Of a stretch of DNA of 64,000 bases, positions 31,804 through 57,084 are shown one piece after another. The translations under genes and the position numbers were made by a program. The stretch's first letter is position 1; every line of letters begins with the position of its first letter. Under the pieces are notes generated by a model that was given only the letters and a program-made list of their open reading frames with translations, did not search any database and had not been told where the DNA came from. Source of the stretch: Acidobacteriota bacterium (GTDB taxonomy: Bacteria > Acidobacteriota > UBA6911 > RPQK01 > JAJDTT01); assembly GCA_965209055.1 (NCBI GenBank), contig OZ242374.1, positions 3,872,001 through 3,936,000 on the forward strand. The letters run 5' to 3'.

Positions 31804-31832
31804 GGTTGTTAACCCCCGCGTCCGCGGAGCAG

Positions 31833-31923: not shown

Positions 31924-31958
31924 CGCGACCTGTGCAATTTTAAACGGCCATTGACACG

Positions 31959-33370: not shown

Positions 33371-33430
33371 TGAAATGTCACCTGTTGCCAGGAATGCCTG
33401 GTAACACTTGGGATAGACTCCATCGGAAAA

Positions 33431-34956: not shown

Positions 34957-35395
34957 TGCAATGGCGGTCAGGTTACGATAACAATCTGTGCAACCCGCCG
35001 CTACCCTTCCGGCTTGCCATTGACCCTTCCCTCTTCATATCCCCTATTCCGTAGGGAATCCGACCTGTCCCCGTGGACGTTGGCAGATGCGCGGACAATT
35101 TTTCCGAGGTGTCGACACCGGGTCCGCAATCGTTTCGGTCGTCACCATGGCAGGGAGTATCACACAGGTGATGAGAGGTGGAAACCAAACGTAGACCATA
35201 AGTGACTGATTTTATGGGGATAGATATCTCCTGACCATTTAAGTTGCCCCCACAGATGCCCTCAGTCATTGAAATGTCCCGACTCGCCTCGGTACGTAAA
35301 GCAGCCCACTAGGCCGACTGGGTCTCAGCTTGCTTAAAAACAGTCCGTGTCGCCTCTTCTTGTCGATCCGGCGGAGAACCATGTTCCGGAAGGCT

Positions 35396-36313: not shown

Positions 36314-36517
36314 CCCTAATCTTACAATGGACAGGGCTGGAACCAAGAGAATCGACGAAGAGCGCGCTCAGATCGAAGGAATCGATTGGGATTTTGGCCC
36401 CGTGGGGCGTCTTGGAACTCGCTGGTGGCTAGAACCAAATCACAAACGCCCTCAGGATTAGACTCATTGCACTGCACAACTGTAGTTTTGGCGGATCACC
36501 GGGGGTTCGCAAACCGC
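36314..36517 (-). promoter_or_regulatory. CRISPR leader
   Basis: Lower-GC non-coding stretch between cas2 and the conserved end of the array. Confidence 0.75.
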
Positions 36518-36808
36518 TCAGAGGACCCAAGGGTCCCCGAGTCGGTGGGGTTGGGTGCGTCCGAAACAGATGCGGGCATCGTCGAACCCGCCATTAAGTC
36601 GGTATATAATCAGGGAATCGACCTTGGGGTCCATGACGTCCTGTATCTCCCCGATCATGCGAGCCAGCCGCGAGGGAGTTTGCCTGCACTCAAACACCGA
36701 GAACTGTACTCGTTCGCCATATTTCTCGCAGATCTGGGCAACACGCTTGAGTCGCAGTGAACCATCGCCCCGAGTGTCGGCGATATCGTATGTGATGAGA
36801 AAGTCCAT
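36518..36808 (-). CDS. cas2: CRISPR-associated endonuclease Cas2
   Basis: LITYDI and GERVQFSVFEC. Confidence 0.96.
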   Translation of the reverse strand: MDFLITYDIADTRGDGSLRLKRVAQICEKYGERVQFSVFECRQTPSRLARMIGEIQDVMDPKVDSLIIYRLNGGFDDARICFGRTQPHRLGDPWVL

Positions 36809-36811
36809 GAT

Positions 36812-37828
36812 TCACGGCAGCACGAACGGGGGATAGGCTGGTAGATCTCCCCGAAGATGACGCGCCAGAAGGGTCGATTGGATGTGCGGAAGCGCCCATC
36901 GACCCACACCCCGACGGAGCACGGGATGCCGTAGCTCCGTTGCCTTGTGTTTCTCCCACGCGTGAATCAGCAACTTTCGTCCCTCGTCGTTGAGGTAGAC
37001 CGCACCACCCGGCGTCCGCACGAAATGATCTTCCCGTAGCTGCTGACGTCGGACCAGCGACACGACGAAGCGGTCCGTAAGAGGCCGTAGCTCCTCGGCA
37101 AGGTCGAGTGCGAGCGACGGCCGGCCTGATCTCGGTCGGTGAAAGAAGCCCATTTGGTAATCGAGTCCAACGCTCTCAATGGCGCCGATGAGTTCCGTCA
37201 CCAAGAGTCCATAGCAGAAGCCGAGCGCCGAGTTTACGGGATCCCGGGGCGGCCGCCTGCTCCGGGCCAGGAATTCGCAATTTGAGTCCGCCAGGACTTC
37301 GCCCACTCCGCGAAAGTAAACGCGCGCCGCATCGCCCTCAATGCCCCGGACATGGTCCGGTGTCGGGGCGTCGCTGACGCGGGGCACCCGGACCAGAAGC
37401 TGGTCGGCACGCCGGGCAAGGCTGCCAGCCAGAACCGGATCCTTTGCGTCGCGACTCCATCGGCCGAGCACTTTTCTGCTGTTTTGTAGTTTCGCCGCCA
37501 CCACCGCCTTGGAGAGTGCCACCGCTTGAACCTCGTCGCTGACGGCGCGATAAAGAGCGGCCCGCAAGTGAACGTTTCCGCCCGTCTTGTGACCGACGAC
37601 GAATCGTATGGAGCCGCTCTGGCGGAGCGCCGCTACGCGCACACCCCTCTTGGCGCACGCCTCCAAGGCTTGGGACGTGATCTGGCCGCCACCAATTAGT
37701 ACGAGCCCATCGATCCCCTCGAGCGGAACACGCTGCTTCCCGTCCGGCGTGGATACGAGCAAGGATCCGCGGCGATGGCCAACACGCGCCCGGTGATTGC
37801 GCACATACAGCGTGCTCAGGTAGCGCAT
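36812..37828 (-). CDS. cas1: CRISPR-associated endonuclease Cas1
   Basis: RGIEGDAARVYF, RPPRDPVNSAL, GFFH and SLALDLAEELRP. Confidence 0.96.
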   Translation of the reverse strand: MRYLSTLYVRNHRARVGHRRGSLLVSTPDGKQRVPLEGIDGLVLIGGGQITSQALEACAKRGVRVAALRQSGSIRFVVGHKTGGNVHLRAALYRAVSDEVQAVALSKAVVAAKLQNSRKVLGRWSRDAKDPVLAGSLARRADQLLVRVPRVSDAPTPDHVRGIEGDAARVYFRGVGEVLADSNCEFLARSRRPPRDPVNSALGFCYGLLVTELIGAIESVGLDYQMGFFHRPRSGRPSLALDLAEELRPLTDRFVVSLVRRQQLREDHFVRTPGGAVYLNDEGRKLLIHAWEKHKATELRHPVLRRGVGRWALPHIQSTLLARHLRGDLPAYPPFVLP

Positions 37829-38433
37829 TTGAAGACTGTCCCAGTCATGTAGCGACTTATGCGGCGGGGTGCACTGGTCACCTCCGGCAAGCAATGAGCC
37901 CGGAGTTGACACTTCTGGCAGCGTTCGTCATTGGGAGCGTCCGGCAATTTTCCGGAAAGCACCTGACTCCGGATCGCCTCAACGATTTCCCGGACCTGCG
38001 CTCGGAGTTCTGGCGTGAAAGGAACCCGTAGGCGGCGCCTGGGTCCCCCGTACCAAATGTAGCCTGCCGGTATCTCCACGCCGAGCATTTCTTCCAGGCA
38101 CATGCCCTGCGCGCACACTTGCAGGTCGGCCGTATCGCCGTGTCGCACGCCTGACTTGTATTCGACCGGGCAAACCCGACCGCCATCGATCTCGACCGCG
38201 TCAGCGCGGCCCGAGAGGCCCAGCTCCTCCGACCACAGCGGTATCCCGCGTAGGACGAGCTTCCCACGTTCATGCCGGGAACGACCGGAGTCCACACGCC
38301 GGTGGGCCCGCGAGCCCCTTACGGTGTGTGCATTATCGCTCCATACGCCGTCGCAGTGAATCAGGGCGCACTGCCTCGCGCAATACGCGAAGTGCTCGAT
38401 CGCCGAAATCAGGACGACCGGATCGTCAGTCAA
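37816..38433 (-). CDS. cas4: CRISPR-associated exonuclease Cas4
   Basis: YCARQ, GRADAVE, PVEYK and C-terminal CxxC....C Fe-S ligands. Confidence 0.95.
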   Translation of the reverse strand: MTDDPVVLISAIEHFAYCARQCALIHCDGVWSDNAHTVRGSRAHRRVDSGRSRHERGKLVLRGIPLWSEELGLSGRADAVEIDGGRVCPVEYKSGVRHGDTADLQVCAQGMCLEEMLGVEIPAGYIWYGGPRRRLRVPFTPELRAQVREIVEAIRSQVLSGKLPDAPNDERCQKCQLRAHCLPEVTSAPRRISRYMTGTVFKCAT

Positions 38434-39319
38434 GTCTCTCTGCTCCGAAGCCGCGGGTCGTATCCGAGGTTCCCTTTGCCTCGTAGTTCACACTCCGCCA
38501 CGCCGCGTGGATTCCAAAGCGGGCCCAAGAACTCTTCCGATCGATCCGCCATAGATCGAGGAGCGCGTCAATCCCCGCACAGTTGAGAGGAATGCTCCAG
38601 ACGGGCCAAGCAAAACGAGACCGTGCCCGGCGATCATCTTCCCGCACCCACCCCCGTTGGATCGTGGAGGCGCGGACGCCCTTTCCCGTGCGCGCGTCCG
38701 TCCCGGTCCCCCGCACCGGAAAAAGAGCCAATCCAAAGAACGCTAGCGTCTCCACCACCGGATCAACCCACTTCGAAGCCGCGTCCGCTCCGGACCCCAT
38801 CCGCGCTATATCGAAACCGAGGCCGTTGTTTTCGATTCTCTCGCCCGTGCCCTCAAACGTTCGGCGAAGATCCTCCGTCCCCGGTGTGAAGTGCAGCTTT
38901 AGCAGGCGGTCATGCATGACGTACCCGCGTGGCACTGGCGGATCGAACGGAGAGTGTGCGACGTTACCCTTGTCATCGACGTGGAGGTCGGTGATCGTTG
39001 ACGAGAGCGTCCACGACAGGGGATCTGTGCGTACGGCGGAGGCGCGCGACGCGAATGCGTCCACCGGGACGTTTCTCGGCAGGTCTTCAATATTCGGCCA
39101 CGCCCTCCGAATCGGCATGCTTTCGAGCGTGGAGCGGCTCGGCCAGGAACTCGCCAGGACGGCTACTGGGTCCTCCTGCTGGCAGCATAGAACAGCTTGA
39201 GGCGTGCCCTCTTGTGTCCAACGCAGCCGTAACTTGGGACTGACAACCGTGGCTCCGACCGCTGCAAGCCACGCGTTGATCCACGACGCTGGCAACCCGG
39301 GGCATGTCACTTCCTTCAT
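38426..39319 (-). CDS. csb3: Type I-G large subunit, compact Csb3 (Cas8u2)-like
   Basis: Position directly after cas3, and WLAAVG, LGFD, PVVETLAFFGL and FAWPVWSIPL segments. Confidence 0.7.
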   Translation of the reverse strand: MKEVTCPGLPASWINAWLAAVGATVVSPKLRLRWTQEGTPQAVLCCQQEDPVAVLASSWPSRSTLESMPIRRAWPNIEDLPRNVPVDAFASRASAVRTDPLSWTLSSTITDLHVDDKGNVAHSPFDPPVPRGYVMHDRLLKLHFTPGTEDLRRTFEGTGERIENNGLGFDIARMGSGADAASKWVDPVVETLAFFGLALFPVRGTGTDARTGKGVRASTIQRGWVREDDRRARSRFAWPVWSIPLNCAGIDALLDLWRIDRKSSWARFGIHAAWRSVNYEAKGTSDTTRGFGAERLD

Positions 39320-42147
39320 GGTTTGGCCTCCACCGCGGGTATTGGCACACCGCTGGAGACCGCATGGTCGGCCGTCCGCAAAATAGATTCCATCAACGCC
39401 AGCCCCCAGGGCCCGAAGCTCTCGTTGAGCCGCCTGAATCGAGCTGGCTGTTCCCAGTCGACAACCGAAAGATCGGCGGAGGCTTCCAGCCGGACGCCGT
39501 CGATCTCCGATACCACTATCTCCGCTGCGCCGTCGATCACGGGCGGGATCAGTGGCCGTCCGCCCCCGTGATGGCTGATCACGAGATGGACGAGGAGGTC
39601 GGCTAGTCGAGGGTCAAAATCATTTTCCAATGTATCGATCCAAAGCCGAACCAGCCGTGCGGACAGCGTTTCATGTCGGCCGCCTCGGGGCCAACCGGCC
39701 GCGACTCGCGTTGCGTTCCAACGGTTCTTCGGCATACCCGACTTTGCGAGAAAGGGGGAGGCTCGCCCGTTCGGGGCTGTGGCGTTCGGATTGAGCCAGC
39801 GTTGGAAACGCGGATCAGCCTTGCCGGTGTCATGCCACCGGCCAGCGAGTATGATCACGTTAACGAGTTCCGAGGGAAGTCCAACCTGTTCCGCGATCGA
39901 ACGGGACATGATCCCCACCGCTTCTCCGTGAGTATCGAGGAGAACCGCCGTCGGGGCGAGTGAAGTCTCATCGAGTTCTTCGCTTGATTGTTCCGTCCTG
40001 CCGTCGGCAGGAAGACGAAAGCGCGGAACCTCGTTGGGCGAAAAAACCACCCTCGGTTCAAGGGCTTCCAGGAAGTCTCGCCATTCGGCCTCTTCCCACC
40101 CTGCGGGTGTGGTCTCGGACATAGCTTGGAGGAACTGTTCAGCGGCATCCTGCCGCTCGGCCTCGTCTATTTCCTCCTCGTCCGGGACATGCCCCAAAGC
40201 CTTCCGGAGCAGACTCCGCAAAGGTACGTTGCCAGACGCCGTTTCAAGGGGTTTGGTCAGAGAAACGCCGCCCATTCGTTGAATCGCCTCCTCATCAAGT
40301 GGCAATCCCCGAGCGGCGATCGACACGTCGAAGACAGGAGAAGTCGAATCGGGATTCCAGCCGAATTCGTCAAGCAGACCCCTGTCGGACGGAAGCAGGA
40401 CAACGTCTCCGGGACGGAGTTTCCTGATCGGGATGGACTCGATGGTGATCTGGTCGGTGCGGAGACGCTTGACTTCTTCATCCTCGCCGATGGCCCTTTT
40501 TATTGCGCCGATCGGGACGTTCACGACCTCACGGTCGAAGGGGCGCGGCCAGAGCCGTTGCTCGGCAACCGGGACGTGGCCCCGCCAGATGACCGACACT
40601 GTGTAGTCGATGCCTGAGATGCCGGAGAAATACGGCTCTACCGGGGCCTCTTCCAGAGGTGGCGTTGTAGTCTTAATCCATTCCCACAAGAGACCGTTGA
40701 GGATCTCTGGCGCACGTCCCGGATCGTCGCTCGGCTCTCGGAGTATTTCCGAGACCCTCCTTGGCGAAAGATCAACACTCGCCTTGGCCGGATCCAGGGA
40801 ATTCTTTAATCGTTCCAGCACCGTGTCTGGTTCAGTACCATAGACAGGCCACTCAGCCGGACCCGTCCTCTTGCGCGCTCCCCGTTTCTTGGGAGGCGTA
40901 TGGGCATACACGCCCCGTGCATGATCGAAGTGACCGAGGCGGTTGAGGCGACCCAACCGCTGGGTGAGCGCACGGACGCCGCAGGTTTCGGTGACCAGGT
41001 ACTCCGCGTCAATATCGGCACCCACCTCAAGTGTCTGAGTGGCGATGACAATCAGGTGCCGCGACCGTGCCGTGCCGGGGTTGCGGTCCGCAGCCATGCC
41101 CTCGACTCCGTCCAGGATCCGCGTTCGGATGAATTCCGCCTCCCGCTCCCGGGTTCGGCCTGTCAGGAGGAGCGTGTCGGCAGCCGATGCCGGGAATCGC
41201 TTCCGTAGAAGCGTGAGGACCCCTCGGGCCGTATCCGGCGTGTTGGCGAAGACCAGACATGACGAAGACGGCGACGCCTTCAGAAGATCCTCCACGGCCT
41301 CCGTCAAGTGCCGAACGGGGTCGCCCGATGAGCGGACTCGAATCGTCACCGGCTTGCTGGCGTCGAGCCTTTGCCCCACGGTAGCATTGCCTTCGTCGTC
41401 CGCGTTGAGATCAAATCGATCTCCCTCCGGCGCGTCTCCCGTTGCGGTCAGGGCCACAACTTGCGGCCGCGATCGTGGCGCTCCGAGGATCTCTTTCGCC
41501 CCCTTGGTGCATTCCGAGAGCGCGGAGACAAGGTTCGTGAGATGTCGGGCCAGGTGCGCTTCATCCACCAGGAGCAGACAGTCGCTTCCCGCAAACGCCG
41601 CGTCGACTGGGCGCATCATCCGGCTGGTTCCGTAGCCGCGAAACAGCAGACGAGACCCATACATGGGGATAGTCGACAGGAGTACCGCGGGACTGGACGG
41701 ATCGGTCGGACGCTTCGCTCCGACGCCGCCTCGGAGTCGGATTACTTCAAGGGGAGAAGCCGTTGGAGCGGCCGCCAGGGAACGCAAACGCTCTCCCACG
41801 ACGCGAAGGGGCCTCACGTCGCTGCCACGAAGAGTCTCACTGATCCACAGGGCATGTTCTGCGGTGGAATCGACAAGGAGCCGCCGGTTGACCAGCCACC
41901 AAATCCGGGTCGGGGCCGTGCGCTCGCTGGGTGGCCGTTCAGCTTGCGACGCCAGCCACCAAACGGCGATGTCCAGGCAGGCCGTCTTTCCCAGCCCAGT
42001 GGGAACCCCGATTTCAGTCGGCCAACGGTCTGATTCCGCGACCTTCTCCGCGAGTCGTGCCTGCCACGGGAAGGGCGGGCGCTCGTTGAGTGCCTGGTAG
42101 AACTCCGGGAACGTCGGCATCGGGTCCAGTCGTGGCGCATCAAACAT
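39316..42147 (-). CDS. cas3: Type I-G Cas3 helicase with C-terminal HD nuclease
   Basis: PTGLGKT, DEAH, LTAT and QRLGRLNR. C-terminal H...HDTGK...RHE...SHHG...ADH. Confidence 0.95.
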   Translation of the reverse strand: MFDAPRLDPMPTFPEFYQALNERPPFPWQARLAEKVAESDRWPTEIGVPTGLGKTACLDIAVWWLASQAERPPSERTAPTRIWWLVNRRLLVDSTAEHALWISETLRGSDVRPLRVVGERLRSLAAAPTASPLEVIRLRGGVGAKRPTDPSSPAVLLSTIPMYGSRLLFRGYGTSRMMRPVDAAFAGSDCLLLVDEAHLARHLTNLVSALSECTKGAKEILGAPRSRPQVVALTATGDAPEGDRFDLNADDEGNATVGQRLDASKPVTIRVRSSGDPVRHLTEAVEDLLKASPSSSCLVFANTPDTARGVLTLLRKRFPASAADTLLLTGRTREREAEFIRTRILDGVEGMAADRNPGTARSRHLIVIATQTLEVGADIDAEYLVTETCGVRALTQRLGRLNRLGHFDHARGVYAHTPPKKRGARKRTGPAEWPVYGTEPDTVLERLKNSLDPAKASVDLSPRRVSEILREPSDDPGRAPEILNGLLWEWIKTTTPPLEEAPVEPYFSGISGIDYTVSVIWRGHVPVAEQRLWPRPFDREVVNVPIGAIKRAIGEDEEVKRLRTDQITIESIPIRKLRPGDVVLLPSDRGLLDEFGWNPDSTSPVFDVSIAARGLPLDEEAIQRMGGVSLTKPLETASGNVPLRSLLRKALGHVPDEEEIDEAERQDAAEQFLQAMSETTPAGWEEAEWRDFLEALEPRVVFSPNEVPRFRLPADGRTEQSSEELDETSLAPTAVLLDTHGEAVGIMSRSIAEQVGLPSELVNVIILAGRWHDTGKADPRFQRWLNPNATAPNGRASPFLAKSGMPKNRWNATRVAAGWPRGGRHETLSARLVRLWIDTLENDFDPRLADLLVHLVISHHGGGRPLIPPVIDGAAEIVVSEIDGVRLEASADLSVVDWEQPARFRRLNESFGPWGLALMESILRTADHAVSSGVPIPAVEAKP

Positions 42148-43573
42148 CGAGAGCCTTGCCCCAGGAGCAATTGACGCATAGGCCGAGCCCCCGCTGGCGA
42201 GCGGAGCCGACCACGACCGGTCCCTCTACGGGGTTCGCGAACCAGAGTTGGATGTGCGAATAGGGAAGTCCGGGCCTTCCGGGTCGGTTTACCTCGACAG
42301 GTGCGAGATCAACCCCGCCGGCGATGAGCGGTGAACGCGCCGACCGGAAAGCTACCGGCGCGGGAAGTCCCGCGTGTTCGCACCACCTCGACACTTCCGC
42401 GAGGTCGAGGGGCACGCGGCGTTCGTGGACCGCCGGAAACACCGAAACCCAAGAGCGCGCGGTGCGAATCCAACGCGCTGGAGTGGCAGCGACGGGCCGC
42501 CTCTCACCAGTGTATGGGGCGACGGACACGTCTACGCCACCGCCTCGCAACCGACTAACGGCTCCGGCAGCCTGCCGAACTCGATGCTGCAGCACTGCCT
42601 CGCAGCCCGGTGGCAACCAGAGGGCCAAGCCGTGGATTCGGCCGCGGGATCGCGGGAATCCTGCGTCCGGCAGCGCGAGGAAGCGGGCCAGATCATAGCC
42701 CCGCCGCTCGAATCCGTGACCATGCAAGACGGCGGGTGGTTCGCCATAGAGTCGTTGATAGGTGGCGAGTACGGCCTTCTTAAAGAGCGAAGTGACGACA
42801 GACACACGGCGTCCGGAGACCGAAGTCTCCATACGGAGCCATGCGACTACGCTGCCTCGATCAACACTCTCATCCGGTGTTGGAGAGTGGTACTTGGCTT
42901 CGTGTCTGAGCGCGGGGAACTGAGTGCGGGCTACCGTGGCACCACGCACCACCCAGGCATCGTAGACGCTATCCAGCAAGCGCAAATCGCCCTTTCTGGA
43001 AACCCGGATATGCACATTCCCCTCCGCGTGCGGCCGAAATACGTCGTCCGGCACCTGTCGCTCAGGCATTCTCGTTTGAACACGAATTCGAACCGGGGAA
43101 TCGGCTGTTCCGAGGTATCCGATGCGGGCCGCCCGCAGCCGCAGGCCGTTCACGACATCGGCTGGACAGGAGGTTTTCCAGATGTACACGATGCTGCGGT
43201 AGCGCGGTGAAACACGTACACCGGGTCGGACCTGCACGCCTTGGCGGCCGATGTATTCGAGATGAGCAAGGATTTGCTTCCTTGCGGTGGCAAACCTCGG
43301 GTCGGCGCGCGCGACGTAACGGGGGTGTAGCCGTTGGTGGCAAGGCGTCCCATGCGCGTGGATCACCGGTGGCGGAAGCTTCTCGAGCCACTCCAACTCG
43401 GCTCCGGTAGTGACACGGAGCCGGTCTCTCGTCCCGTCCGCAGCCACGAACGCGGCAAACAGGCGTGAGGGGGCTGGCGGCCATTCGCCCCTACCCAGAT
43501 GACCGGTGGTCGAGGAGCCATCGGGGTCCGCGCGGAACGTGCCATGGAGGAGCTCAACGGAGATCGCCAGCAT
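42140..43573 (-). CDS. csb2: Csb2 (Cas5-Cas6 fusion)
   Basis: EWPPAPSRLFAA, IGYLG and a C-terminal Gly-rich loop GPVVVGSARQRGLGL. TAATG coupling to csb1. Confidence 0.92.
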   Translation of the reverse strand: MLAISVELLHGTFRADPDGSSTTGHLGRGEWPPAPSRLFAAFVAADGTRDRLRVTTGAELEWLEKLPPPVIHAHGTPCHQRLHPRYVARADPRFATARKQILAHLEYIGRQGVQVRPGVRVSPRYRSIVYIWKTSCPADVVNGLRLRAARIGYLGTADSPVRIRVQTRMPERQVPDDVFRPHAEGNVHIRVSRKGDLRLLDSVYDAWVVRGATVARTQFPALRHEAKYHSPTPDESVDRGSVVAWLRMETSVSGRRVSVVTSLFKKAVLATYQRLYGEPPAVLHGHGFERRGYDLARFLALPDAGFPRSRGRIHGLALWLPPGCEAVLQHRVRQAAGAVSRLRGGGVDVSVAPYTGERRPVAATPARWIRTARSWVSVFPAVHERRVPLDLAEVSRWCEHAGLPAPVAFRSARSPLIAGGVDLAPVEVNRPGRPGLPYSHIQLWFANPVEGPVVVGSARQRGLGLCVNCSWGKALDV

Positions 43574-44778
43574 TAGTCGTCCAAGTCGGGCCAAGTAGCG
43601 AGAATCGCCTTGCGCAGGTTGTCCTTGGGAGTCAGGGGAAGCGGGGGCGAGTCCCAACCTTCGAGCGGTACTCCCACGGACTTCGCGTACTCCAAGGCGC
43701 CGTGGAGTAACTTGCCGGTTCGCGCGGCGCCGCCGAGGTCGATCTCCACATCTCCGCTCTCTCCGAGCCAAGTCGCAGTGCGTTTCGTGGGTCGCAATTC
43801 CGCCCCGGATCGCAGCGCGAACCCACGTCCGAATGCAAGCATGTGGGCGTGCAGCCCTAGCAAGACCAGCAGGGCTCGAGCCGCTGAGTCGGCCTTTGCG
43901 GAATGATCAGGTCCGAGAGCGACTCGTCGCAGCTGGGCAAGCGAGAGGGTCGCGCGCTGCGTGACCTTCGCGAACGAAACCGCCGCGGCGGCCGCCTCGT
44001 CGCCCATAAAGGGCACCTGGCCGTGGCCGATCTCGGAGAGTTTGTCTTTTCTGCCACCCTCGATTTCCTTCAGCTTCGCGGTTCCAATTTCCCAGTGCAG
44101 GCGATCGTCCGGGTTCGAGGCCAACACCTCGTCGGTGTTGAGGTTCAGCGGGTCCCCCTTGAGGCCGAGGACGCGCGTGTTGTTGGCCGCCGGTTTCCAT
44201 CCGATGATTTCCGAGACCCATGCTCGTGCATGTTTCGTGTTGTGGCGCTTCTTCCCCAGATGCGACTGCCAGAACCCGTAGAGGAGCGCTTGGGGAAACC
44301 ACGCCATGAGTGGCCCGCAGGCTTCCGGGGTGGCGGCCAGGATGGCTTGCCCGAGGTCGGTTCGAACGAAGTCGACGCCGTCAAGCTGCGCGTCGCGGAG
44401 GTAGGCGTCTGCGTTCCGATGCGGGAACTGGAGACTCGATATTTTTGATGGCAGGTGCGCTGGTAGGTTGGTCAACTCGGAGAGGTCGAGGACCAACTCC
44501 GGGACGAGGACGGACGCCCGATGCCGACGGAGCGCATCCTCAAGCCGGTTGGCCTGCGCAGGCACATTGTCGATCACGATGACCGGCGTGGCTTCCTCGT
44601 CGTAAGAGGATGCCCACCTGCGATCTTCCTGGTATCTCCCACCCTCGTAGACCGCAGGCTTCACAGGTCCGCCCGGTCCGGCAAGAGACTCGAGTTCCGT
44701 GTCGATCCGCAGCCCGTCCTCGAACGACGTATCCGCGCACGCTGCCACGAGCGAATCAAGCCTTATCTGTTTCTTCAC
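43573..44778 (-). CDS. csb1: Csb1 (Cas7g) backbone subunit
   Basis: VKPAVY, IDNVPAQANRLE, PHRNADA, LLYGFWQS, LSEIGHGQVP and LRSGAEL. Confidence 0.92.
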   Translation of the reverse strand: MKKQIRLDSLVAACADTSFEDGLRIDTELESLAGPGGPVKPAVYEGGRYQEDRRWASSYDEEATPVIVIDNVPAQANRLEDALRRHRASVLVPELVLDLSELTNLPAHLPSKISSLQFPHRNADAYLRDAQLDGVDFVRTDLGQAILAATPEACGPLMAWFPQALLYGFWQSHLGKKRHNTKHARAWVSEIIGWKPAANNTRVLGLKGDPLNLNTDEVLASNPDDRLHWEIGTAKLKEIEGGRKDKLSEIGHGQVPFMGDEAAAAAVSFAKVTQRATLSLAQLRRVALGPDHSAKADSAARALLVLLGLHAHMLAFGRGFALRSGAELRPTKRTATWLGESGDVEIDLGGAARTGKLLHGALEYAKSVGVPLEGWDSPPLPLTPKDNLRKAILATWPDLDD

Positions 44779-46100: not shown

Positions 46101-46427
46101 TTAATCTGGAGTCGGAAATGGACTTTTCCGGGAGGACCGGTCGGAGACGAGGAAGGAGCGGCGGATCACCCGTCGCCCCTCCTCGATCACTACCATGAGT
46201 GATTTCCCGCCGGGAACCAATCCCGACATCCGGCACTGGTTTGCCCGAAGTCCATGAGGGTGGTCGAGACGCAGTCTCGCAGGTTTCACCGCAGCGGGAA
46301 CAGTCTTTCCGGAAGCTCCGATAGCCGCAGTCCGGACAGCGGTAACGCGGCGGGCGCGGAGCCTCTCCACCGCCTGCCTCCTGAGAGTCTCCAGCCGTTC
46401 CTTGTTGTGGATCTCAGGGATGCTCAT
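46101..46427 (-). CDS. Hypothetical basic protein
   Basis: ORF directly after the structured repeat copy 2; no motif recognised. Confidence 0.35.
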   Translation of the reverse strand: MSIPEIHNKERLETLRRQAVERLRARRVTAVRTAAIGASGKTVPAAVKPARLRLDHPHGLRANQCRMSGLVPGGKSLMVVIEEGRRVIRRSFLVSDRSSRKSPFPTPD

Positions 46428-46462
46428 ACATCCCATATTGCCGGTCACGGGTGTCTTTTATT

Positions 46463-46738
46463 GGCCTTCCCGCCAGGGATATTTTGGAAGGGAGCGACCC
46501 CCCAGGGGGTGTGGCAAAGATGTATATTGCGCCACACCCCCGCGCCCGCACCGGGCAGGAAAAAGGGGGGGTCGCTCCCTTCCACCTCCGCTTTCCCCGT
46601 GCGGGCGCGGCGAAGCCGGGAATGTGGCCGTAACTGCATTAACGACAAAGAGTTCGGGGAAATCGGAGGTGTAAGTCAAAAGGCTTCCGGGATGGAACTC
46701 GCGTCCATTGTCTCACTTACACTCCCGGATCGGGCGCG
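46463..46738 (-). repeat. 276-bp structured repeat, copy 2
   Basis: Reverse-complement homolog of 33095-33370. Outer stem at 46485-46503/46566-46584. Confidence 0.85.
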
Positions 46739-46829
46739 GAACCCCACTTTTCAGCGGTCAAGATCGACCTCCCGGAAGCCGGCTCAAACGCCAGATCGCG
46801 AAACCTGCCGGGGGGACGACCACGGCGGA

Positions 46830-48053
46830 TCAACGGAGCCGATCAGATGCCGGTTGCCGACTCTCGCCAGCCAGATAGCCCGCCCAGTCGTCCATCAGAC
46901 GCCTCCGCCGCTCGAACAGGTCCGTGCGCCGGTAGGCGGCCTCGACCGGGTTGCGGACCTTGTGCGCCAAAGCCGCCTCCGCCACCTCGCGCGGATGATC
47001 CGTCTCCTCCGCTGCCCAGTCGCGAAAGCTCGACCGGAACCCGTGCGGCACCGCCGCGATCGTCAACCCCCGGAGCAGTTCCGACATGGCCGTATTACCG
47101 ATGGGCTTTCCACCCACCCTCGGAAAAACGAGTGGGCTGCCGCCACCGAGCGCCTGCGCCTCCTCCAGGATCTCCAATGCTCGTCGGGCCAAGGGGACCC
47201 GGTGCTCCCGATTCCCCTTCGTCCGTGCGGCCGGGATGGTCCACACTCCTTCCTCCCGGTCGATCTCCTTCCACGCGGCCCCACGGACCTCGCCGGAGCG
47301 TGTCGCCGTCAGGACCAGGAACTCGAACATCAGCTTCAACAACGGCCGCTTGTTAGATGCCCGCACCGTCTGGAGTGCGGACGCCACTTCACCGTGAGGC
47401 AACGCCCGCATGTGACGCACGGCGTTCCCCTGCGAGCCGAGCACCGGCCCAATCCGGTCGCACGGGTTGTCGGGCCGAAGATCCATCGCCACGGCCCACT
47501 CCAGGACCGCGCGGATGCGCTGGCGCAGCTTCCGTGCCGTGGGGGCCTTCTCGTGCCAGATCGGAGCGAGGATTCCGATCACGTCGGCGCTCGTCACCTC
47601 CGCAATCGGCATCTTTCCGATATGAGGCAGGACGTGGCGCTCCAGGCTTCCCAGCCAGAGCTGCGCATGCAGGGGGGAGCGCCAGCCCGGACGCAACTGC
47701 TTCCAGACCGTCCGGGCGGCGTCCGCGAAGGTGGGCATCGACTCGGCCCGCCGCCTCTCGGCCCGGGGGTCGCCCCCGTCGCGGGCCAGCTTCCGGTTGG
47801 CGAACGCCTTCTCGCGCGCTTCCTTGAGCGAGACGAGGGGGAATCCGCCGAGGCCGAGCTCGGTTCGGCGGCCCCGGATCGTGATGCGCTGGATCCAGCC
47901 CCGGCTGCCCGTGGGCCGGACGTCGAGATAGAGGCCTTGGCCGTCGCAATAGCGTCCGGCCTGGTTCACGTTGCGGACAAAGGCCGGTGTCAGAGCATTG
48001 AGGGGATGCCGACCGCGCGGCTTGCGTTTCGGAGGTCGTTTTGTAAGTCTCAT
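46830..48053 (-). CDS. P4-like tyrosine integrase
   Basis: Arm-binding N-terminus (DGQGLYL, LGGFPLVSLKEAR). Catalytic residues in TATRSGE, RTK, HGFR, LAH and AAY are intact. Confidence 0.93.
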   Translation of the reverse strand: MRLTKRPPKRKPRGRHPLNALTPAFVRNVNQAGRYCDGQGLYLDVRPTGSRGWIQRITIRGRRTELGLGGFPLVSLKEAREKAFANRKLARDGGDPRAERRRAESMPTFADAARTVWKQLRPGWRSPLHAQLWLGSLERHVLPHIGKMPIAEVTSADVIGILAPIWHEKAPTARKLRQRIRAVLEWAVAMDLRPDNPCDRIGPVLGSQGNAVRHMRALPHGEVASALQTVRASNKRPLLKLMFEFLVLTATRSGEVRGAAWKEIDREEGVWTIPAARTKGNREHRVPLARRALEILEEAQALGGGSPLVFPRVGGKPIGNTAMSELLRGLTIAAVPHGFRSSFRDWAAEETDHPREVAEAALAHKVRNPVEAAYRRTDLFERRRRLMDDWAGYLAGESRQPASDRLR

Positions 48054-48866
48054 GCCTACCACTATACCTACCACCATATGGTGGATGCAAGGGGATGGAG
48101 TGGATCGGTATGGGACAAGTTCGGATGTCCGAACTAGTGTTAAATCAACTAAATATAGACACTTATGGACAATTCTGGACTTACCTGGACAATGTATCCG
48201 ATTCAATCAAGGATTCCTTGCGGGAAGGATTCGAGGAGGCTTGACCGACTATCCCGAGTGCCAGGACTGTGTGGCCATTTATTCGGAGTTCACCATGTGG
48301 CGAACCAGCGAAACCGAGATTTTGGACAAAGACAATAGGTTTACGACAAGCGGATCTGTACCGGGAACTCCAGAAACCGGAGATTCAGGCCCTGTTCAAG
48401 GAGAATCCGCACTGCTCCGAGTCGGTCCCCGGACCGGGCCTCGGTTCAGCGTCCCCAGGCTTCGACTCGATCCCCGAGCCGGGTTGGAGACGCATCGGAC
48501 TCTTGCGTCGCCACCGATAGCGTTTTCGGGCAAGATTTCATAATACTGTCAGCAAATTGCGAGCATTGTCATATTAGGGTCACTTCTTCCATATACACCC
48601 GCACCTTCTGTACGATATCCTTTGAATCTCATGTGAAGCGGCGGCGGCGGGTAGATCCTACTGCTATACGCTGTCGGGTCCAGCGGAGGTTGTGTGTCTC
48701 GCGTTAGTGGAGGTCGCGCGGAAGAAGTGCTTGGATCGTTGCTAGCCGAACAGTAATCGCACCCACACGGGGAAGGGTATGACCTCAGCCTTTCGACCCG
48801 GCCCCGGTGCGATGTCCGGGAGGCGGTATCGAACCTCGCCGCCCCCTTGGATTTGAAGGAGAAGAA

Positions 48867-51955: not shown

Positions 51956-52065
51956 CCTCCGCCCGGTCTTCGCCCTGGAGGACTTGAACGCCTACGCCGA
52001 TTCTCTGGAGCCGTGGTACGATTCGCACCACGGCGAAGAACCCGGATCCAGAAAGGAGGAGATGC

Positions 52066-53172
52066 ATGGGCATCTATAAGGTGAAGGATCGCCGGGGGAG
52101 ACGACGTTTCGTCGTCAGCAAGTACTGGCCGCATGGATCCGGTCGGCTCCGAATGTACGCCCCCAATTACCGGAGCGCGCAGGCGCTTCAAACACGAATC
52201 GAGTCCAGCATCCTGGACGGCACATGGAAGCAGCTCAAGCGGGAACTGGCCGGTGGGAACCGCACCGTCTGGACGGTCCGGAGCTTCTACGAGCGTTTCT
52301 TCGAGGAGTACTGCAAACCTCGCATGCGCTCCCGGCGTCGCTATGCGCTCTCGTTCAAGAGCCTCAACGCCGTGCTGGGGCACATTCCCCTGAAGGAGTT
52401 CCAACGCAAAGACCTGTACCGCTACGTCGCCAAGAGGAAGAAGCAAGTGCAGCCGGCCACGGTGAACCGGGACATTGCCGCCATCAGCAAACTGTTTTCC
52501 TTTGCGCTGGAGTGCGGAGAGGTGGACACGCACCCGCTGGTGAGATTCCCCAAACTCAAAGAACCCAAGAAGGTCTTCCGGCCATTGACGGTTCAACAGT
52601 TCCGCGACCTGGTCGAGGCGATGGACAACCCTTACCTGCAAGCCATGGTTTCGGTGATCGGCGAGACGGGGATACGGAAAGGCGAAGCGTTGTCGCTCAC
52701 CTGGAAACGGGTGGACCTATCCCGGAGGCTGCTATGGGTGGAATTCACCAAGAACGACGAGCCGAGGGAGATCCCGCTGTCGAAGTACGCCGCAGGATAC
52801 CTGACCGGGCTGGTTCGCTACCTGAGCACCCCATACGTCTTCGTCAACACCCGGACGGGGACGAAATGGGTGAATCCGGACAAGCCCTTGCGCCGGGCCG
52901 CCGATCGGTTGGGGTTGAAGGTCGGCTTTCACGACCTGAGACGATTCCGGTGCAGCCACTGGCTGATGCAGGGGGTGGACGTGAGGACGGTGCAGAAGCT
53001 GATGGGCCACTCCTCGATCAGCACGACGATGCGCTACGCAGGTTACGTCAGTTCTCATGCGCTTGCCAGCATACGGGAGGCACAGGCTACCGAAGACTCA
53101 CAAATGCTATCGGCAACAAACAGGCAACGGGCAGGAAATGGGAGGAACGATTTGAGAGGAGCATCGGGATAA
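52066..53172 (+). CDS. Tyrosine integrase (phage-like)
   Basis: AGGAGG RBS. PATVNRD, TGIRKGE, TKN, FHDLR, MGH and TMRY are intact. Confidence 0.93.
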   Translation: MGIYKVKDRRGRRRFVVSKYWPHGSGRLRMYAPNYRSAQALQTRIESSILDGTWKQLKRELAGGNRTVWTVRSFYERFFEEYCKPRMRSRRRYALSFKSLNAVLGHIPLKEFQRKDLYRYVAKRKKQVQPATVNRDIAAISKLFSFALECGEVDTHPLVRFPKLKEPKKVFRPLTVQQFRDLVEAMDNPYLQAMVSVIGETGIRKGEALSLTWKRVDLSRRLLWVEFTKNDEPREIPLSKYAAGYLTGLVRYLSTPYVFVNTRTGTKWVNPDKPLRRAADRLGLKVGFHDLRRFRCSHWLMQGVDVRTVQKLMGHSSISTTMRYAGYVSSHALASIREAQATEDSQMLSATNRQRAGNGRNDLRGASG

Positions 53173-53192
53173 CCTGTTGAAAGGAAAGGATC

Positions 53193-53226
53193 AGTCCCGT
53201 AGCTTAGCAGGACAGAGCGGCGGACT
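53193..53226 (+). other. 5' half of a tRNA (Arg-like), att-site remnant
   Basis: AGTCCCG-TA-GCTT-AGCAGGACA-GAGC-G-GCGGA-CT gives the acceptor strand, D-arm and 5' anticodon stem. There is no anticodon or 3' half. Confidence 0.7.
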
Positions 53227-53240
53227 AACAGTCCCCCCTC

Positions 53241-54452
53241 CTATGGACCCAGGTTCCGCCACCAGCGCAGCTCCAGACCCCTCTCGTTCACCGCGACGAC
53301 GTCGGACCACCCGTTGCCGTCCATGTCGGCCACGATCACGGTGGCGCCCAGGATCCAGTGCTCCTTCAGCGGGTGCTTTTTCCAGGGATCTTTGGGATCT
53401 CCGGAATTCTCGAACCAGGCAATCTGCCCCTTCTGGCCGAAGCTGGTGGCCACCACGTCCAGATCGCCGTCCTTGTCCAGATCGTGGGGGACACCCTCGA
53501 AGCCGGACCAGAAACCTTCCTGGATGTTGTGCATGCGCCAGCGGTGACCCCGGCCCGGTTTGCCGGTGTTCTCGTACCAGACCAGGTAGTGGCGCTCCGG
53601 AGCATCTCTCCCCAGCAGCCCGCCCGCCATGATCAGATCCAGGTCGCCGTCCCGGTCGAGGTCGACAGGCGTGCCATGCATGGGCAGATGGCGGAGGCTG
53701 ATGACGTGCCGCCGCCAGGGACCGGCGGCCGGATGACCGCTGTTCTCGTACCAGAGGACCATGCCGGCCACGCGGGCCGAACCCACCAGGTCGATCAGGC
53801 CGTCTCCGTTGAAGTCGCCCGCGCGGATCATCCGGGTCTCGAACCGCCCTTCGTCCACGACGTGGGCGGGCCACTCTTCGTGCTGCCACGGACCGGGATT
53901 CCGATACCAGGTAAACTTGTTCCCGAGCCGCCAACTGGAAGCCGCTACGTCCGGGCGGCCGTCCCCGTCCAGATCGGCCACGTCCACGTCGTAGGCCCCC
54001 ATGAGGCCGCCGCTGGTGATGGAGTGTCTTTTCCACGATTCGGTCTGTGCCGGGTTGCCCGGATTCTCGAACCAGAAGACGTCGCCGTAAAAATTGTCGA
54101 TCCCGACCAGATCGATATGCCCGTCCTGGTTGATGTCCGCCAGCCGGTGCCGTTCGTAACGGCCTTGCCAGTCCTCGTTGGCGATGTAATGGCGCCGGAA
54201 CTTGCCGGACCCGTCGTTCTCGTACCAATAGAAGGCGTTGTGGATGCGGGATCCCTTGGTCCCGCAATCGGAGCTGGAAAGATCCAGGTCGCCGTCGCCG
54301 TCCAGGTCGGCCGCGGCCACGGCATAGGCGTAGGTGTAGTCGTTGGAGATGAGGTGTTCCTCGAACTTCAGGTCCTTCGCCTGGAGGGCCAGGCTCGCGG
54401 TGGCGAGTCCGAGAAAAATTCCATAGGAACTCCGATATCCGGTCCAGTTCAT
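53241..54452 (-). CDS. Exported FG-GAP/VCBS repeat protein
   Basis: GGAGG RBS, signal peptide and about 7 D.DGDG..D / WYEN repeats. Confidence 0.88.
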   Translation of the reverse strand: MNWTGYRSSYGIFLGLATASLALQAKDLKFEEHLISNDYTYAYAVAAADLDGDGDLDLSSSDCGTKGSRIHNAFYWYENDGSGKFRRHYIANEDWQGRYERHRLADINQDGHIDLVGIDNFYGDVFWFENPGNPAQTESWKRHSITSGGLMGAYDVDVADLDGDGRPDVAASSWRLGNKFTWYRNPGPWQHEEWPAHVVDEGRFETRMIRAGDFNGDGLIDLVGSARVAGMVLWYENSGHPAAGPWRRHVISLRHLPMHGTPVDLDRDGDLDLIMAGGLLGRDAPERHYLVWYENTGKPGRGHRWRMHNIQEGFWSGFEGVPHDLDKDGDLDVVATSFGQKGQIAWFENSGDPKDPWKKHPLKEHWILGATVIVADMDGNGWSDVVAVNERGLELRWWRNLGP

Positions 54453-54627
54453 GGCGCCTCCCGTTGTCTTGCAGCTAACCCGGATTATCGTCCGGATCGC
54501 TGAGCACATGATGCAAGAGATCATCTCAAGTCTGAAGTTTGAATCAAGTATTTCGACGAACGAATGCAACTTTCGCCGGCCTTCGGGGTTTCCTATATGA
54601 CGATGATTCCGCAGACGCCGGAGCAAT

Positions 54628-55170
54628 ATGGTCGACAACAGCGCGTTTGAGACGTTCGTCTACGAGCACCAGGATCGGGTCTTCGGCATCGCCGTGCGGT
54701 TGCTGGGGAACGAGACCGAAGCCGAAGACGTGTCCCAGACGGTGTTTCTGAGGGCGTTCGAACACTTCGACCGGCTGGGCGACAACCCCGCTGCGGGAGG
54801 TTGGCTGCGAACCGTGACCACGAACCTGTGCCTGAACCATCTCTCCCGGTATCGGGCTCGCTGGCGATTGTTCAGTCAGCGTTCGACCGCCGGAGCGGCG
54901 GCCGGACGGAGTTACGAAGAGAGGATGGTGGCGCCGGGATCGCAGGCCGAAGACTTGGAACGTGCCGGCGAGCAGGCGCGGTTGGAGCAGGGAATTCGTG
55001 GGTTGCCGCCTCACCAGCGGGTGCCTCTGGTGCTGTTTCATTTCGAGGATCGAAGCTATAAGGAAATCGCCGGAATCCTGGACGTTACCCTGGCCAAGGT
55101 CAAGACCGACATTCACCGGGGCCGCCAGGCTCTCCGCCGCTTGATGGAGACGGATGATGAAGCACGATGA
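54628..55170 (+). CDS. ECF sigma factor
   Basis: AEDVSQ, WLRTVTTNL, SYKEIA and VKTDIHRGR. Confidence 0.92.
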   Translation: MVDNSAFETFVYEHQDRVFGIAVRLLGNETEAEDVSQTVFLRAFEHFDRLGDNPAAGGWLRTVTTNLCLNHLSRYRARWRLFSQRSTAGAAAGRSYEERMVAPGSQAEDLERAGEQARLEQGIRGLPPHQRVPLVLFHFEDRSYKEIAGILDVTLAKVKTDIHRGRQALRRLMETDDEAR

Positions 55171-55609
55171 TTTGGAGTCCCTGACCCATCGAAGGCTGGC
55201 CGAACTCCAGCCGCCGCGGGCGCCGCGAACGCTCGCTCCGCGGGTGATGGCTCAGATTCGGAGACGGCAGCAGAGCCCTTGGTATGGCCAACCCTGGATC
55301 GCATGGCCGTGGGTGTGCCAAGTGGTGTCGGTTACCTTTCTCTTGGGACTCTCCGGTTTGGCTTGGTACTTGCTGAATTGGAGGGCTGGCGTTTCCGATG
55401 TTTTGGGGGCCGGAGGAGTGGAGACCAGCATAGTGGCCGTCACCGATGCGGTTGTCACGCTGGCGGAGAGTGCGCGCGTCCTGCAGCGTGTGATTCTGGA
55501 ACCGGTTGCCGGACATCTCATGTTCGTGATGGCATTTTTGGGTATGGCGAGCGCGTTGCTCTGTGCGGCGCTGGCTCGTTTGCTCCAGGAAAGGGAGGCT
55601 GGACGATGA
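55154..55609 (+). CDS. Putative membrane anti-sigma factor
   Basis: Overlaps the sigma gene. APRTLAPRVM followed by two TM helices. Confidence 0.65.
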   Translation: MMKHDDLESLTHRRLAELQPPRAPRTLAPRVMAQIRRRQQSPWYGQPWIAWPWVCQVVSVTFLLGLSGLAWYLLNWRAGVSDVLGAGGVETSIVAVTDAVVTLAESARVLQRVILEPVAGHLMFVMAFLGMASALLCAALARLLQEREAGR

Positions 55610-57084
55610 AGATCGCTTGGGGAGTTTCGGGACTTATGGTGGTGGCGCTGGTGGGTTTTTCTGCTGGCTGTGGCGACGATTCCGGCGGCCCTGATTCGCC
55701 GCCGATTCCAGGGGTGCTCGAGATCGGCGGTGATGACGGTGAGGTCGTCAAGATCGGAGGGAACTACGTTCTCCGAAGCGACCAGGAGGTCGGAGAGCTC
55801 GTCGTGATCTCAGGTATGGCGCGGATCGAAGGGACGGTCAGAGATGAAATGGTGGTCATTGCCGGCGGAGCGACGCTCGCCGGCAGCGCCCGCGTCCAAG
55901 GCGACGCCGTGGTCTTGGGAGGAACGGTCAGGGTGGAGGAAGGAGCCACCGTAGAAGGAGATTTGGTGGTTCTCGGCGGCGGTGTGGATGTGCCCCCGAA
56001 CTTCGAACCGGGTGGGGAGCAGGTCTCTGTCGGGACGATCCCAGCGGGCGGGATATTGGCAGAATTGATTCCCTGGTTCACCCACGGACTGTTGATTGGC
56101 CGCCCGATCGTGCCGAGTCTTCTCTGGATCTGGGTTGTGGTCGGGGTTCTGGCAGTCTTGTACCTGCTGATCAATTTTATTTTCCCGGGTCCGGTCCACG
56201 CCTGCGCACAGGCTCTGGAGGACAAACCGCTGAGTGTGGGTCTGGTGGGAATGTTGGTGGTGCTGCTGATCGCGCCGGTCTCGCTGATGCTGACAGTGAC
56301 CGTCATCGGGCTGGTGCTGATCCCATTCCTTTGGGTCTTGCTTCTGGTCGCCGGCCTCGTCGGTAGCGTAGCCGTTGCCCGCTGGATCGGAGCCCGAATT
56401 CTGGCCGAGGAATCTCCGGAGAACCGGGTCGAGGCGGCGCGGTCGCTGCTTATCGGATTTGCCTTGATCACTCTGGTCTACATGGTTCCGGTTCTCGGCT
56501 TCGTGGCATGGTCCGTGTTGGGCGTGTTGGCGTTGGGCGCTGCGGCAACCGAATCCTTTGCAGGGTTGCGGAAAGAGCATCCGGCTGCTCCGTCTCCGCC
56601 CGCGCCGCCCCCGGCTCCTACCGACATTGAACCGGCGGGTGCCGGAGCCTTGGAATCCCCGGAAATTACGCCACTCCCAGACGAACCCGCGCCGGCGGTA
56701 GACCTCTCGGCGTTTCCCCGTGCGAGATTTCTTGCCCGGGTCGGAGCGCTCCTGATCGATCTCGCCATGGTGGCCTTCGTCACGTACCTACTGGAGATAC
56801 ATGGTGGGAAGACGATTCTGCTTTTGCTGATCTACCGCATCGCTCACTGGAGTTTGAGGGGAACGACTGTCGGCGGCATCATCTGCCGGTTGCGCGTCGT
56901 GCGCACCGATGGAGCACCGATCCGCTTCGCCGAGGCGGCGGTGCGCGGACTCGCCACCATTCTTTCGACGTTGGTCGTGGGACTGGGTTGGCTCTGGATT
57001 CTCTGGGATGCGGAGCGTCAGGCATGGCACGACAAAATTGCGGGAACCGTCGTGGTCCGGGTCCCGTCCGATTGGCCCAGTTAG
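55606..57084 (+). CDS. Membrane protein with beta-solenoid repeats, TM bundle and C-terminal RDD domain
   Basis: ATGA overlap. V.GD.VV.GG repeats, and RDD motifs RVGALLID, LRVVRTDG and QAWHDKIAGT. Confidence 0.8.
   Translation: MKIAWGVSGLMVVALVGFSAGCGDDSGGPDSPPIPGVLEIGGDDGEVVKIGGNYVLRSDQEVGELVVISGMARIEGTVRDEMVVIAGGATLAGSARVQGDAVVLGGTVRVEEGATVEGDLVVLGGGVDVPPNFEPGGEQVSVGTIPAGGILAELIPWFTHGLLIGRPIVPSLLWIWVVVGVLAVLYLLINFIFPGPVHACAQALEDKPLSVGLVGMLVVLLIAPVSLMLTVTVIGLVLIPFLWVLLLVAGLVGSVAVARWIGARILAEESPENRVEAARSLLIGFALITLVYMVPVLGFVAWSVLGVLALGAAATESFAGLRKEHPAAPSPPAPPPAPTDIEPAGAGALESPEITPLPDEPAPAVDLSAFPRARFLARVGALLIDLAMVAFVTYLLEIHGGKTILLLLIYRIAHWSLRGTTVGGIICRLRVVRTDGAPIRFAEAAVRGLATILSTLVVGLGWLWILWDAERQAWHDKIAGTVVVRVPSDWPS

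Follow-up and report, generated by a model that had tools for sequence, protein, structure and literature searches.

How does an integrase gene come to be followed, a few bases beyond its stop codon, by half of a tRNA gene that runs straight into a palindromic repeat of its host? The question is raised by a stretch of 64,000 nucleotides (nt) from an Acidobacteriota bacterium (contig OZ242374.1, positions 3,872,001 to 3,936,000 of the forward strand; assembly GCA_965209055.1), which is called the window throughout and whose own numbering is used unless another genome is named; the 6.08-Mb genome to which it belongs is referred to as G000. A first-pass annotation made from the letters of the window had taken the junction for the trace of an integrase that switched its target from a tRNA gene to a repetitive extragenic palindromic (REP) sequence. 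The analysis presented here extends that single footprint to a family of 26 copies with several loop variants, and the comparisons made give high confidence that this is a family of elements whose integrase ancestor resided in tRNA-Arg(TCT) and whose present members insert into palindromic repeats of the host. The features of the junction, including the right attachment site (attR), are as follows:

52066-53172, plus strand: tyrosine integrase gene of 368 amino acids (aa), intact in the list of open reading frames (ORFs), with stop codon TAA at 53170-53172
53173-53193, plus strand: spacer from the integrase stop to the tRNA-derived part (..CCTGTTGAAAGGAAAGGATCA), kept in 39 distinct family copies and also in the tRNA-type relatives L017 and G003
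53194-53224, plus strand: 5' part derived from tRNA-Arg(TCT), comprising acceptor strand, D arm and the 5' strand of the anticodon stem, ending in GGA (the putative P arm of the element's own site, attP)
53225-53231, plus strand: CTAACAG, a 7-nt segment at the position of the anticodon loop
53222-53235, plus strand: attR copy of a 14-nt block, GGACTAACAGTCCC, common to the left attachment site (attL)
53232-53243, plus strand: right arm of the host palindrome (TCCCCCCTCCTA), the final bases of which form the stop codon of the minus-strand FG-GAP gene
53241-54638, minus strand: FG-GAP gene (Pfam FG-GAP_3, E=9.7e-40)

The tRNA(Arg)-like half that had been noticed just past the integrase stop is found, after a spacer of 21 nt, as GTCCCGTAGCTTAGCAGGACAGAGCGGCGGACT (53194-53226). 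Its tRNA origin is plain: 27 of 31 bases at 53196-53226 are identical to nt 4-34 of the host tRNA-Arg(TCT) gene (G000 307704-307778, minus strand), as located by ARAGORN in the whole genome. The match stops after GGACT, two bases into the anticodon loop, where the half had been said to join REP sequence, and the right half of a palindrome does follow there (AACAGTCCCCCCTCCTA), its last three bases being the stop codon of the convergent FG-GAP repeat gene. On its host side attR holds an arm of the palindrome and the terminus of a protein-coding gene, and there is no tRNA at the host target site (attB) of the window. Neither ARAGORN nor Rfam, the latter at its gathering threshold in the window and at a permissive E-value on 53100-53231, called a tRNA, a result that is uninformative either way because half a tRNA scores too low.

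As a control for chance, the ARAGORN tRNA set was compared with 1500 random 150-mers of the genome, whose best scores averaged 12.6 (standard deviation 2.8). Six of the 1500 reached the 23 of the window; judged by their coordinates, none of the six looks like a chance match, one being another copy of the element and the rest a true tRNA gene, 3' fragments of tRNAs and a repeat family miscalled by ARAGORN. That this locus formerly held a host tRNA-Arg gene whose 3' half was destroyed or replaced, or that the likeness is an accident, can for practical purposes be set aside. Nothing speaks for it beyond the likeness itself, whereas the high-scoring 150-mers all lie at tRNA-related or repeat loci, the orthologous site holds no tRNA in seven congeners, and the spacing between integrase stop and fragment is constant over 25 copies, each of which occupies a different site.

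The protein encoded next to the half is, by its family matches, a tyrosine recombinase: it scores 97.8 bits against Pfam PF00589 (cut-off 27.1; E=8e-28; residues 174-325) and E=1.3e-58 against phrog_1, annotated as 'integrase', and its relatives in the PDB are integrases and Xer proteins (best E=1.5e-17). Read by eye, the translation shows TGIRKGE, HDLRR and GHSSISTTMRY, candidate motifs for the catalytic residues R, H-x-x-R, H/W and Y, in the expected order. The scores lie far under the NCBIfam cut-offs for integron integrase (58 against 265), XerC (95 against 335) and XerD (87 against 330). A scan of 52900-53400 for promoters and terminators gave no site. The integrase used as query against metagenomes returned seven loci, none with a tRNA, at full-length identities of at most 30%, three pieces of 54 aa excepted.

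If the junction is one end of an element, another end should carry the same core. The following features answer to this:

32140-32168, plus strand: attL, composed of the left arm of the palindrome (GAAGACGGGGGG) and the core GGACTAACAGTCCC (32155-32168)
32169-32338, plus strand: conserved left end (putative P' arm, 170 nt), starting AACTGTCCCAAAGTCAAAGACTACCG, with 30 homologs in G000 and 82% identity to the left end in G003
32169-53235, plus strand: whole integrated element of about 21.05 kb, delimited by the pairing of attL and attR, both ends being homologous to a minimal element of 2.7 kb

The observation that a left-end sequence is followed by a near copy of itself was also borne out, since AACAGTCCC (32160-32168) directly precedes AACTGTCCC (32169-32177). 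The stretches of the window that match the 2.7-kb minimal element are 32153-33382 and 51956-53238, and the only conserved protein with a family match in that minimal element is the tyrosine integrase. On this comparative basis 53194-53243 is very probably the attR junction of a site-specific integrative element spanning 32169-53235.

The same layout is repeated throughout G000. Searches with tblastn gave 26 full-length copies of the integrase (85-100% identity), and in 25 of them a tRNA-Arg(TCT)-like 5' half, identical at 23-29 of 31 positions, follows the integrase stop at a fixed distance; in the remaining copy (G000 6076041-6077182) the end of the contig cuts the half after 15 bases and the contig start does not continue it, the circular junction of this single-contig assembly probably falling in a repeat. 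The best or joint-best host tRNA is tRNA-Arg(TCT) for 22 of the 26 copies. For every one of the 25 integrase ends a partner left end lies 2.7-25 kb upstream, and the 7-nt segments of attL and attR are identical within all 25 pairs, in agreement with the proposal that the core of attP now matches the palindrome. Five loop variants occur in G000, each fitting a different palindrome or orientation:

CTAACAG, 7 copies: the type of the window
CTGTTAG, 8 copies: the reverse complement of CTAACAG, that is, the same palindrome in the opposite orientation
TTTCCAA, 5 copies
TTTCTAA, 1 copy: one base away from the CTTCTAA of the tRNA
TTTCCTA, 4 copies

The length of the block common to attL and attR varies, with 14 nt for the window copy, 11 nt for elements of the TTTCCAA type and no more than the 7 nt themselves for those of the TTTCCTA type; in every case the block includes the 7-nt segment, which suggests that this segment is the overlap region in which strands are exchanged. 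On the element side, every attP has GGA before the 7 nt and TCC after them, like the anticodon stem of the tRNA; the outer halves belonging to the host, when joined, give palindromes such as GGGGGGA-CTAACAG-TCCCCCC, whose arms may be the core binding sites. Moreover, G000 contains two pairs of 2.7-kb elements whose members agree at 2796 of 2796 and 2718 of 2719 nt and are embedded in unrelated flanks; movement was therefore recent.

Whether the tRNA-derived half still has a function is a separate matter. The consensus of 39 distinct copies from G000 and relatives, CCCGTAGCTCAGTTGGACAGAGCAACGGACTTC, is identical to the tRNA at 32 of 33 positions (hand count), so that alignment to the host tRNA set, proposed by the first-pass annotation as a check, gives a closer match for the family than for the copy in the window. 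The half could be a neutral fossil with no present role that persists only through the youth of the family, and this explanation, although doubtful, deserves serious consideration: the identity to the tRNA (74-94%) is comparable to the divergence seen among the integrase genes, the changes in the D stem are not compensatory (for instance GATC/GAGC and TCTC/GAGC), and the first three acceptor bases have drifted in most of the 39 copies. On the other hand, conservation across the same 39 copies is among the highest in the GGACAGAGC block and in the GGA that precedes the loop, the half is still recognisable (24-25 of 31) beside integrases that are just 71-74% identical (L011, L013), and it occupies the place where a P arm and core binding sites would be expected.

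The targets themselves can be recognised in unoccupied form. The 13-mer core GGACTAACAGTCC occurs 44 times in G000, where 8 intact palindromes of the type of the window (exact copies) and 79 of the TTTCCAA type are present. One unoccupied copy lies within the window:

31831-31851, plus strand: unoccupied copy of the window palindrome (GGGGGACTAACAGTCCCC), beside the end of an insertion sequence (IS)

An orthologous FG-GAP gene is found in seven congeners (85-93% identity), and in all seven of them uninterrupted palindromes follow it, some in tandem arrays, with no integrase junction and no tRNA; the right arm TCCCCCCTCCTA comes after these hairpins too. G001, the closest congener, carries 18 copies of GGGACTAACAGTCCC and no integrase of the window family at E<=1e-120. 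These data bear on the alternative that the palindromes were made and spread by the elements themselves, as scars or solitary attachment sites, and are not a host repeat family that the elements adopted. What favours this very improbable alternative is the ratio within the AAC/GTT type in G000, with 16 occupied palindromes (attL/attR pairs) against 8 intact exact copies. It is opposed by the core copies of G001 in a genome with no family integrase, by the tandem arrays with other centres at the same intergenic site of the congeners, and by the GGCGATTTCCAATCGCC type, whose 79 intact copies are used by 5 elements.

Contigs of four public sequencing runs were also compared with positions 52000-54500. 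Contigs from X15 (7566 nt) and X1 (3519 nt) match the FG-GAP side from exactly 53222 onwards, with 2 and 26 other letters, and their 112 and 2427 further left-hand letters do not align to the integrase side; a 999-nt contig from X3 spans the junction (53113-54108, with 46 other letters). The site may be empty in some populations and occupied in others, an indication given no weight because short-read contigs break or jump at a repeat of 26 copies. Thirteen of the 21 public runs listed (X1-X14; eight studies) carry the label of sponge metagenome, and most hold a modest fraction, 0.2-0.5, of the words drawn from the FG-GAP flank.

The IS next to the unoccupied palindrome has a DDE_Tnp_1 transposase and terminal repeats GGTTGTTAACCC.., and occupies 30436-31815, some 10-20 nt from the palindrome. 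Six of about 12 unoccupied palindrome copies in G000 adjoin the same IS end; such places, besides the one in the window, are G000 706682, 781240, 3256111, 3713536 and 6022747. This second, unrelated element may also use the palindromes as landing sites.

If the target was switched, relatives with the older habit should exist. The first-pass annotation had asked whether homologous integrases sit at intact tRNA-Arg genes, and three such cases were found. The clearest is G003, a complete genome of the same genus, in which the single integrase of the family (82% identical) lies directly upstream of an intact tRNA-Arg(TCT) gene, on the same strand and with the same spacer. No far end of this element is present within 40 kb of the integrase end, and it was located through the displaced host flank: the flank that abuts the tRNA in G000, G001 and G004 lies 47,023 bp off in G003, and the attL there joins host flank to tRNA nt 1-42 (at 100% identity), beyond which comes a left end sharing 82% identity with 32169-32338. 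By this comparison G003 holds a complete 'reversed' integration, in which the 5' fragment of the host has been displaced and the working gene owes its 5' part to the element. In L017, a contig of 1.9 kb, an integrase 84% identical over 165 aa is likewise followed by an intact tRNA-Arg(TCT), while in G010 an integrase of 70% identity lies upstream of tRNA-Arg(TCG). Integrases that are more remote (37-39% identity) face tRNA-Arg genes convergently, in the usual 3' orientation. The tRNA-Arg(TCT) gene is present in all eight congeners (100% identical in seven, 99% in G005) and is unoccupied in G000. Between tRNA-type and repeat-type members attP is collinear, with integrase, spacer, tRNA 5' part, 7-nt loop, TCC and a homologous left end in the same order, and the main difference is the loop.

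Several other integrase and tRNA neighbourhoods were encountered. At L054 (G010 contig 21, 319781-322855) a single tRNA-Arg(TCG) has an integrase homolog on either side (70% and 54% identity), one of them upstream on the strand of the tRNA and the other convergent, possibly as a tandem or double occupancy from both sides. In an archaeal metagenome-assembled genome (L022:4055-4141) a distant integrase, of 28% identity, has an intact tRNA-Leu(TAA) behind it on its own strand, and the integrase-then-tRNA arrangement may therefore be wider than the window family; ARAGORN finds seven tRNA-Leu(TAA) genes in G000. The latter genome also contains 49-nt 3' fragments of tRNA-Ala(GGC) (4876016-4876064, 100% identical) and tRNA-Pro(GGG) (1247749-1247797, 96%), which start in the anticodon region and stand beside integrases only 27% identical to that of the window, so that ordinary tRNA islands are present in G000 as well.

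A maximum-likelihood tree of 38 integrases, rooted on integrases of 39% identity, places the 33 repeat-type sequences in one group (support 93/89; 90% of 200 bootstrap trees) and leaves the three tRNA-associated integrases outside it, in an unresolved base. Copies with CTAACAG and CTGTTAG are intermixed within the group, one such pair being sisters (100/92), and modules have therefore been exchanged, or the overlap flipped, more than once. The number of integrase copies is 26 in G000, 8 in G004, one each in G003, G005, G006, G007 and G008, and none in G001 and G002. None of the conclusions depends on G014, a genome marked as unpublished.

Taken with the relative in G003, the paired ends and the uninterrupted palindromes of the congeners, the tree agrees with the switch from tRNA to REP that the first-pass annotation had put forward, and the following course of events can be proposed. 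The attP consists of the integrase stop, the spacer, the tRNA-Arg(TCT) 5' part up to GGA, the 7-nt segment, TCC and the left end. The ancestor would have entered tRNA-Arg(TCT) in the rare 'reversed' orientation, the element supplying the 5' part of the tRNA, with crossover in the 7-nt loop between two symmetric stem strands. The loop of attP would then have changed from CTTCTAA to CTAACAG, fitting the centre of GGGGGGA-CTAACAG-TCCCCCC, where the G-rich and C-rich arms of the repeat would stand in for the anticodon stem. The integrase, binding inverted arms around a 7-bp overlap and exchanging strands there, would now join attP with the repeats; the target would have gone from one copy to many copies per genome, and the element would have multiplied like an insertion sequence. 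A route for such changes of the overlap is offered by secondary sites of the kind found with lambda, where integration occurs at an imperfect site and excision carries the new overlap into attP; the loop may have been altered in this way here. More specifically, it is quite possible, and is put forward tentatively, that the integrase reads little beyond short G- and C-rich inverted arms, that the 7-nt overlap of attP sets the address, and that small changes were enough to move the family from the tRNA to the palindromes.

A number of points weigh against this reading. The palindrome beside the FG-GAP ortholog of G001 has the centre AAA and not AAC, a second hairpin with AAC lying 50 nt beyond it, so that the exact pre-insertion site is reconstructed and not seen. 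In the TTTCCTA subfamily the arms beside the loop are GT and CC, not GA and TC, and recognition of the arms must therefore be loose or differ between subfamilies. The support of the repeat-type branch in the tree is below the 'starred' level of the tool, and L017 fills just 45% of the alignment columns. The left flank of the element is a mosaic in which the IS stands together with a duplicated 159-nt stretch from an aminotransferase 3' end and with 56 nt copied from beside another element, and synteny with the congeners is lost there; it may have been a later rearrangement between copies that gave attL and attR their present pairing. Finally, all the evidence is comparative.

The mosaic can be described more closely. 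Within the stretches 30277-30435 and 31816-32148, the closing 159 nt of a class IV aminotransferase gene occur in duplicate (94% identity), and the patchwork between the IS and attL contains, together with another variant of the palindrome, the 56-nt copy, which is 93% identical to the flank at G000 4495089-4495146. No single event explains this patchwork. On the other side, in G001, G004 and G005, the palindromes of the FG-GAP gene adjoin DNA whose counterpart in G000 is 574 kb distant and abuts the integrase end of a different element copy (the stretches compared being 53219-56200 of the window and G000 4498041-4499390); this displacement points to a large rearrangement with its endpoints in copies of the element.

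A different account of the 21-kb stretch holds that it is not one mobile unit, two copies or part-copies having recombined and trapped chromosomal or foreign DNA between the attL of one and the attR of the other. The junction at 53222 would keep its status as an attR of the family, but the full element as drawn would at no time have been mobile in one piece. The mosaic left flank and the displaced neighbour of the FG-GAP gene fit this account, as does a second, inverted copy of an internal segment of the element at 46304-46744. It is nevertheless considered unlikely, given that attL and attR share the same 14-nt core, that both ends fit the minimal element in order and orientation, and that other copies show the same layout with cargo of 3.5-25 kb.

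Read as one integrated element, the 21-kb stretch carries a cargo of which the most conspicuous part is a CRISPR-Cas system:

35395-44778, strand not assigned: CRISPR array (35395-36333) and cas genes, with Cas1, Cas4, Cas3, GSU0054 and GSU0053 families

The array has 12-13 repeats of about 36 nt with a period of 72-77, and Cas3 has a C-terminal HD domain; going by the family names, we take the system to be type I-U/I-G-like. At the DNA level the cas region was not found in five congeners (E<=1e-50), and the 11 spacers gave no match in the genome outside the array at E<=0.01. Further cargo consists of a gene for an extracytoplasmic function (ECF) sigma factor and several ORFs with no Pfam match. 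One of the latter, of 627 aa (46254-48137), belongs at the DNA level to a multi-copy family of the congeners, with one copy inside the tRNA-Arg element of G003 (1980221-1981135), and part of its region is also present, inverted, in the 2.7-kb minimal element. An 85-nt repeat (33272-33349 in the window; about 51 places in G000), found in many copies of the element and also elsewhere, is miscalled by ARAGORN as tRNA-Val(cac/tac); other repeat families are miscalled as tRNA-Ser(aga), with 60 extra matches, and tRNA-Gly(tcc), with 37.

How does such a family compare with known systems? Rare islands that displace the 5' fragment of a tRNA gene were reportedly described by Zhao and Williams in 2002 under the term 'reversed target orientation'. 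The rarity can be put in figures, since the excerpted text of the Islander study counts 3' fragments in 3760 islands, 5' fragments in 159 and anticodon-centred sites in 2083 (PMC4383910), and recombination with the 5' region of tRNAs is called 'considerably less frequent' in an excerpt of another source (PMC6563490). The window family shares with islands of the anticodon loop a tyrosine integrase beside attP, a tRNA fragment in attP that ends in the anticodon arm, and a crossover segment that would be the 7-nt loop between symmetric stems, a layout that fits the overlap-plus-core organisation of attachment sites as presented in part of PMC8371274. The relative in G003 is a plain member of this class, and the fragment in the attP of the window is of the 5' kind, the rarer one. 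Unlike those islands, the window copy and 24 others have a repeated palindrome as attB, where the tRNA part rebuilds nothing, and 26 copies are present here instead of one. The pTN3-like integrases of archaea also use the 5' half of a tRNA gene as attB, but they belong to single-copy archaeal plasmids that still target tRNA genes, and repeat targeting is not described in the excerpted text (PMC8371274); related work, again as excerpted, links them to chromosomal inversions (PMC5495485).

With regard to specificity, the window family differs from the lambda saf and mv4 systems in that those are laboratory mutants or assays, whereas here a natural radiation is seen, in which one genome has at least five overlaps and its relatives have others. 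The saf mutants of lambda (Weisberg et al., 1983) are said to have established that identity of the 7-bp overlap sets specificity and that a changed attP overlap redirects integration. For phage mv4, a preprint, consulted as an excerpt, makes integrase specificity dependent on a 7-bp overlap and describes a site with two 7-bp inverted repeats around a 7-bp exchange region, the arms being tolerant (bioRxiv 10.1101/2023.11.06.565760).

As to the target, the window family lands on a repeated extragenic palindrome, in the manner of REP-targeting insertion sequences, from which it differs by its tyrosine recombinase, by its attL and attR and by cargo of up to about 22 kb. Extragenic palindromes serve as landing sites, in many copies, for IS1397/ISKpn1, IS621 of the IS110 family and RAYT/REPIN, and the REP-targeting insertion sequences use DDE, DEDD or HUH transposases. 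Integron integrases and the XerCD-exploiting elements (IMEX) are, like the integrase of the window, tyrosine recombinases acting on hairpin-forming or palindromic sites; they are set apart by the NCBIfam scores, and the window family gives no sign of single-strand substrates. A literature search, carried out largely outside subscription journals, brought up no report of REP-like palindromes as the target of a tyrosine integrase, nor of a vestigial tRNA half kept by one.

The preference of integrases for tRNA genes and the route by which they reach a new target are old questions. In the present case a single genus shows both target states, the attachment sites being collinear and distinguished mainly by seven bases, and the switch of target is therefore directly testable. 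If the address sits largely in the 7-nt overlap, it could be rewritten at will by editing seven bases of attP, and the integrase would be of interest as a programmable insertion tool. For the biology of these bacteria, the family indicates that a conservative site-specific element can reach the copy number of an insertion sequence (26 in 6 Mb) and can carry cargo such as a complete CRISPR-Cas system around the genome. If the proposed mode of recognition is true, this would be an IS-like, cargo-carrying element that multiplies, tracks the repeat variants of its host, flips its overlap and rearranges the chromosome.

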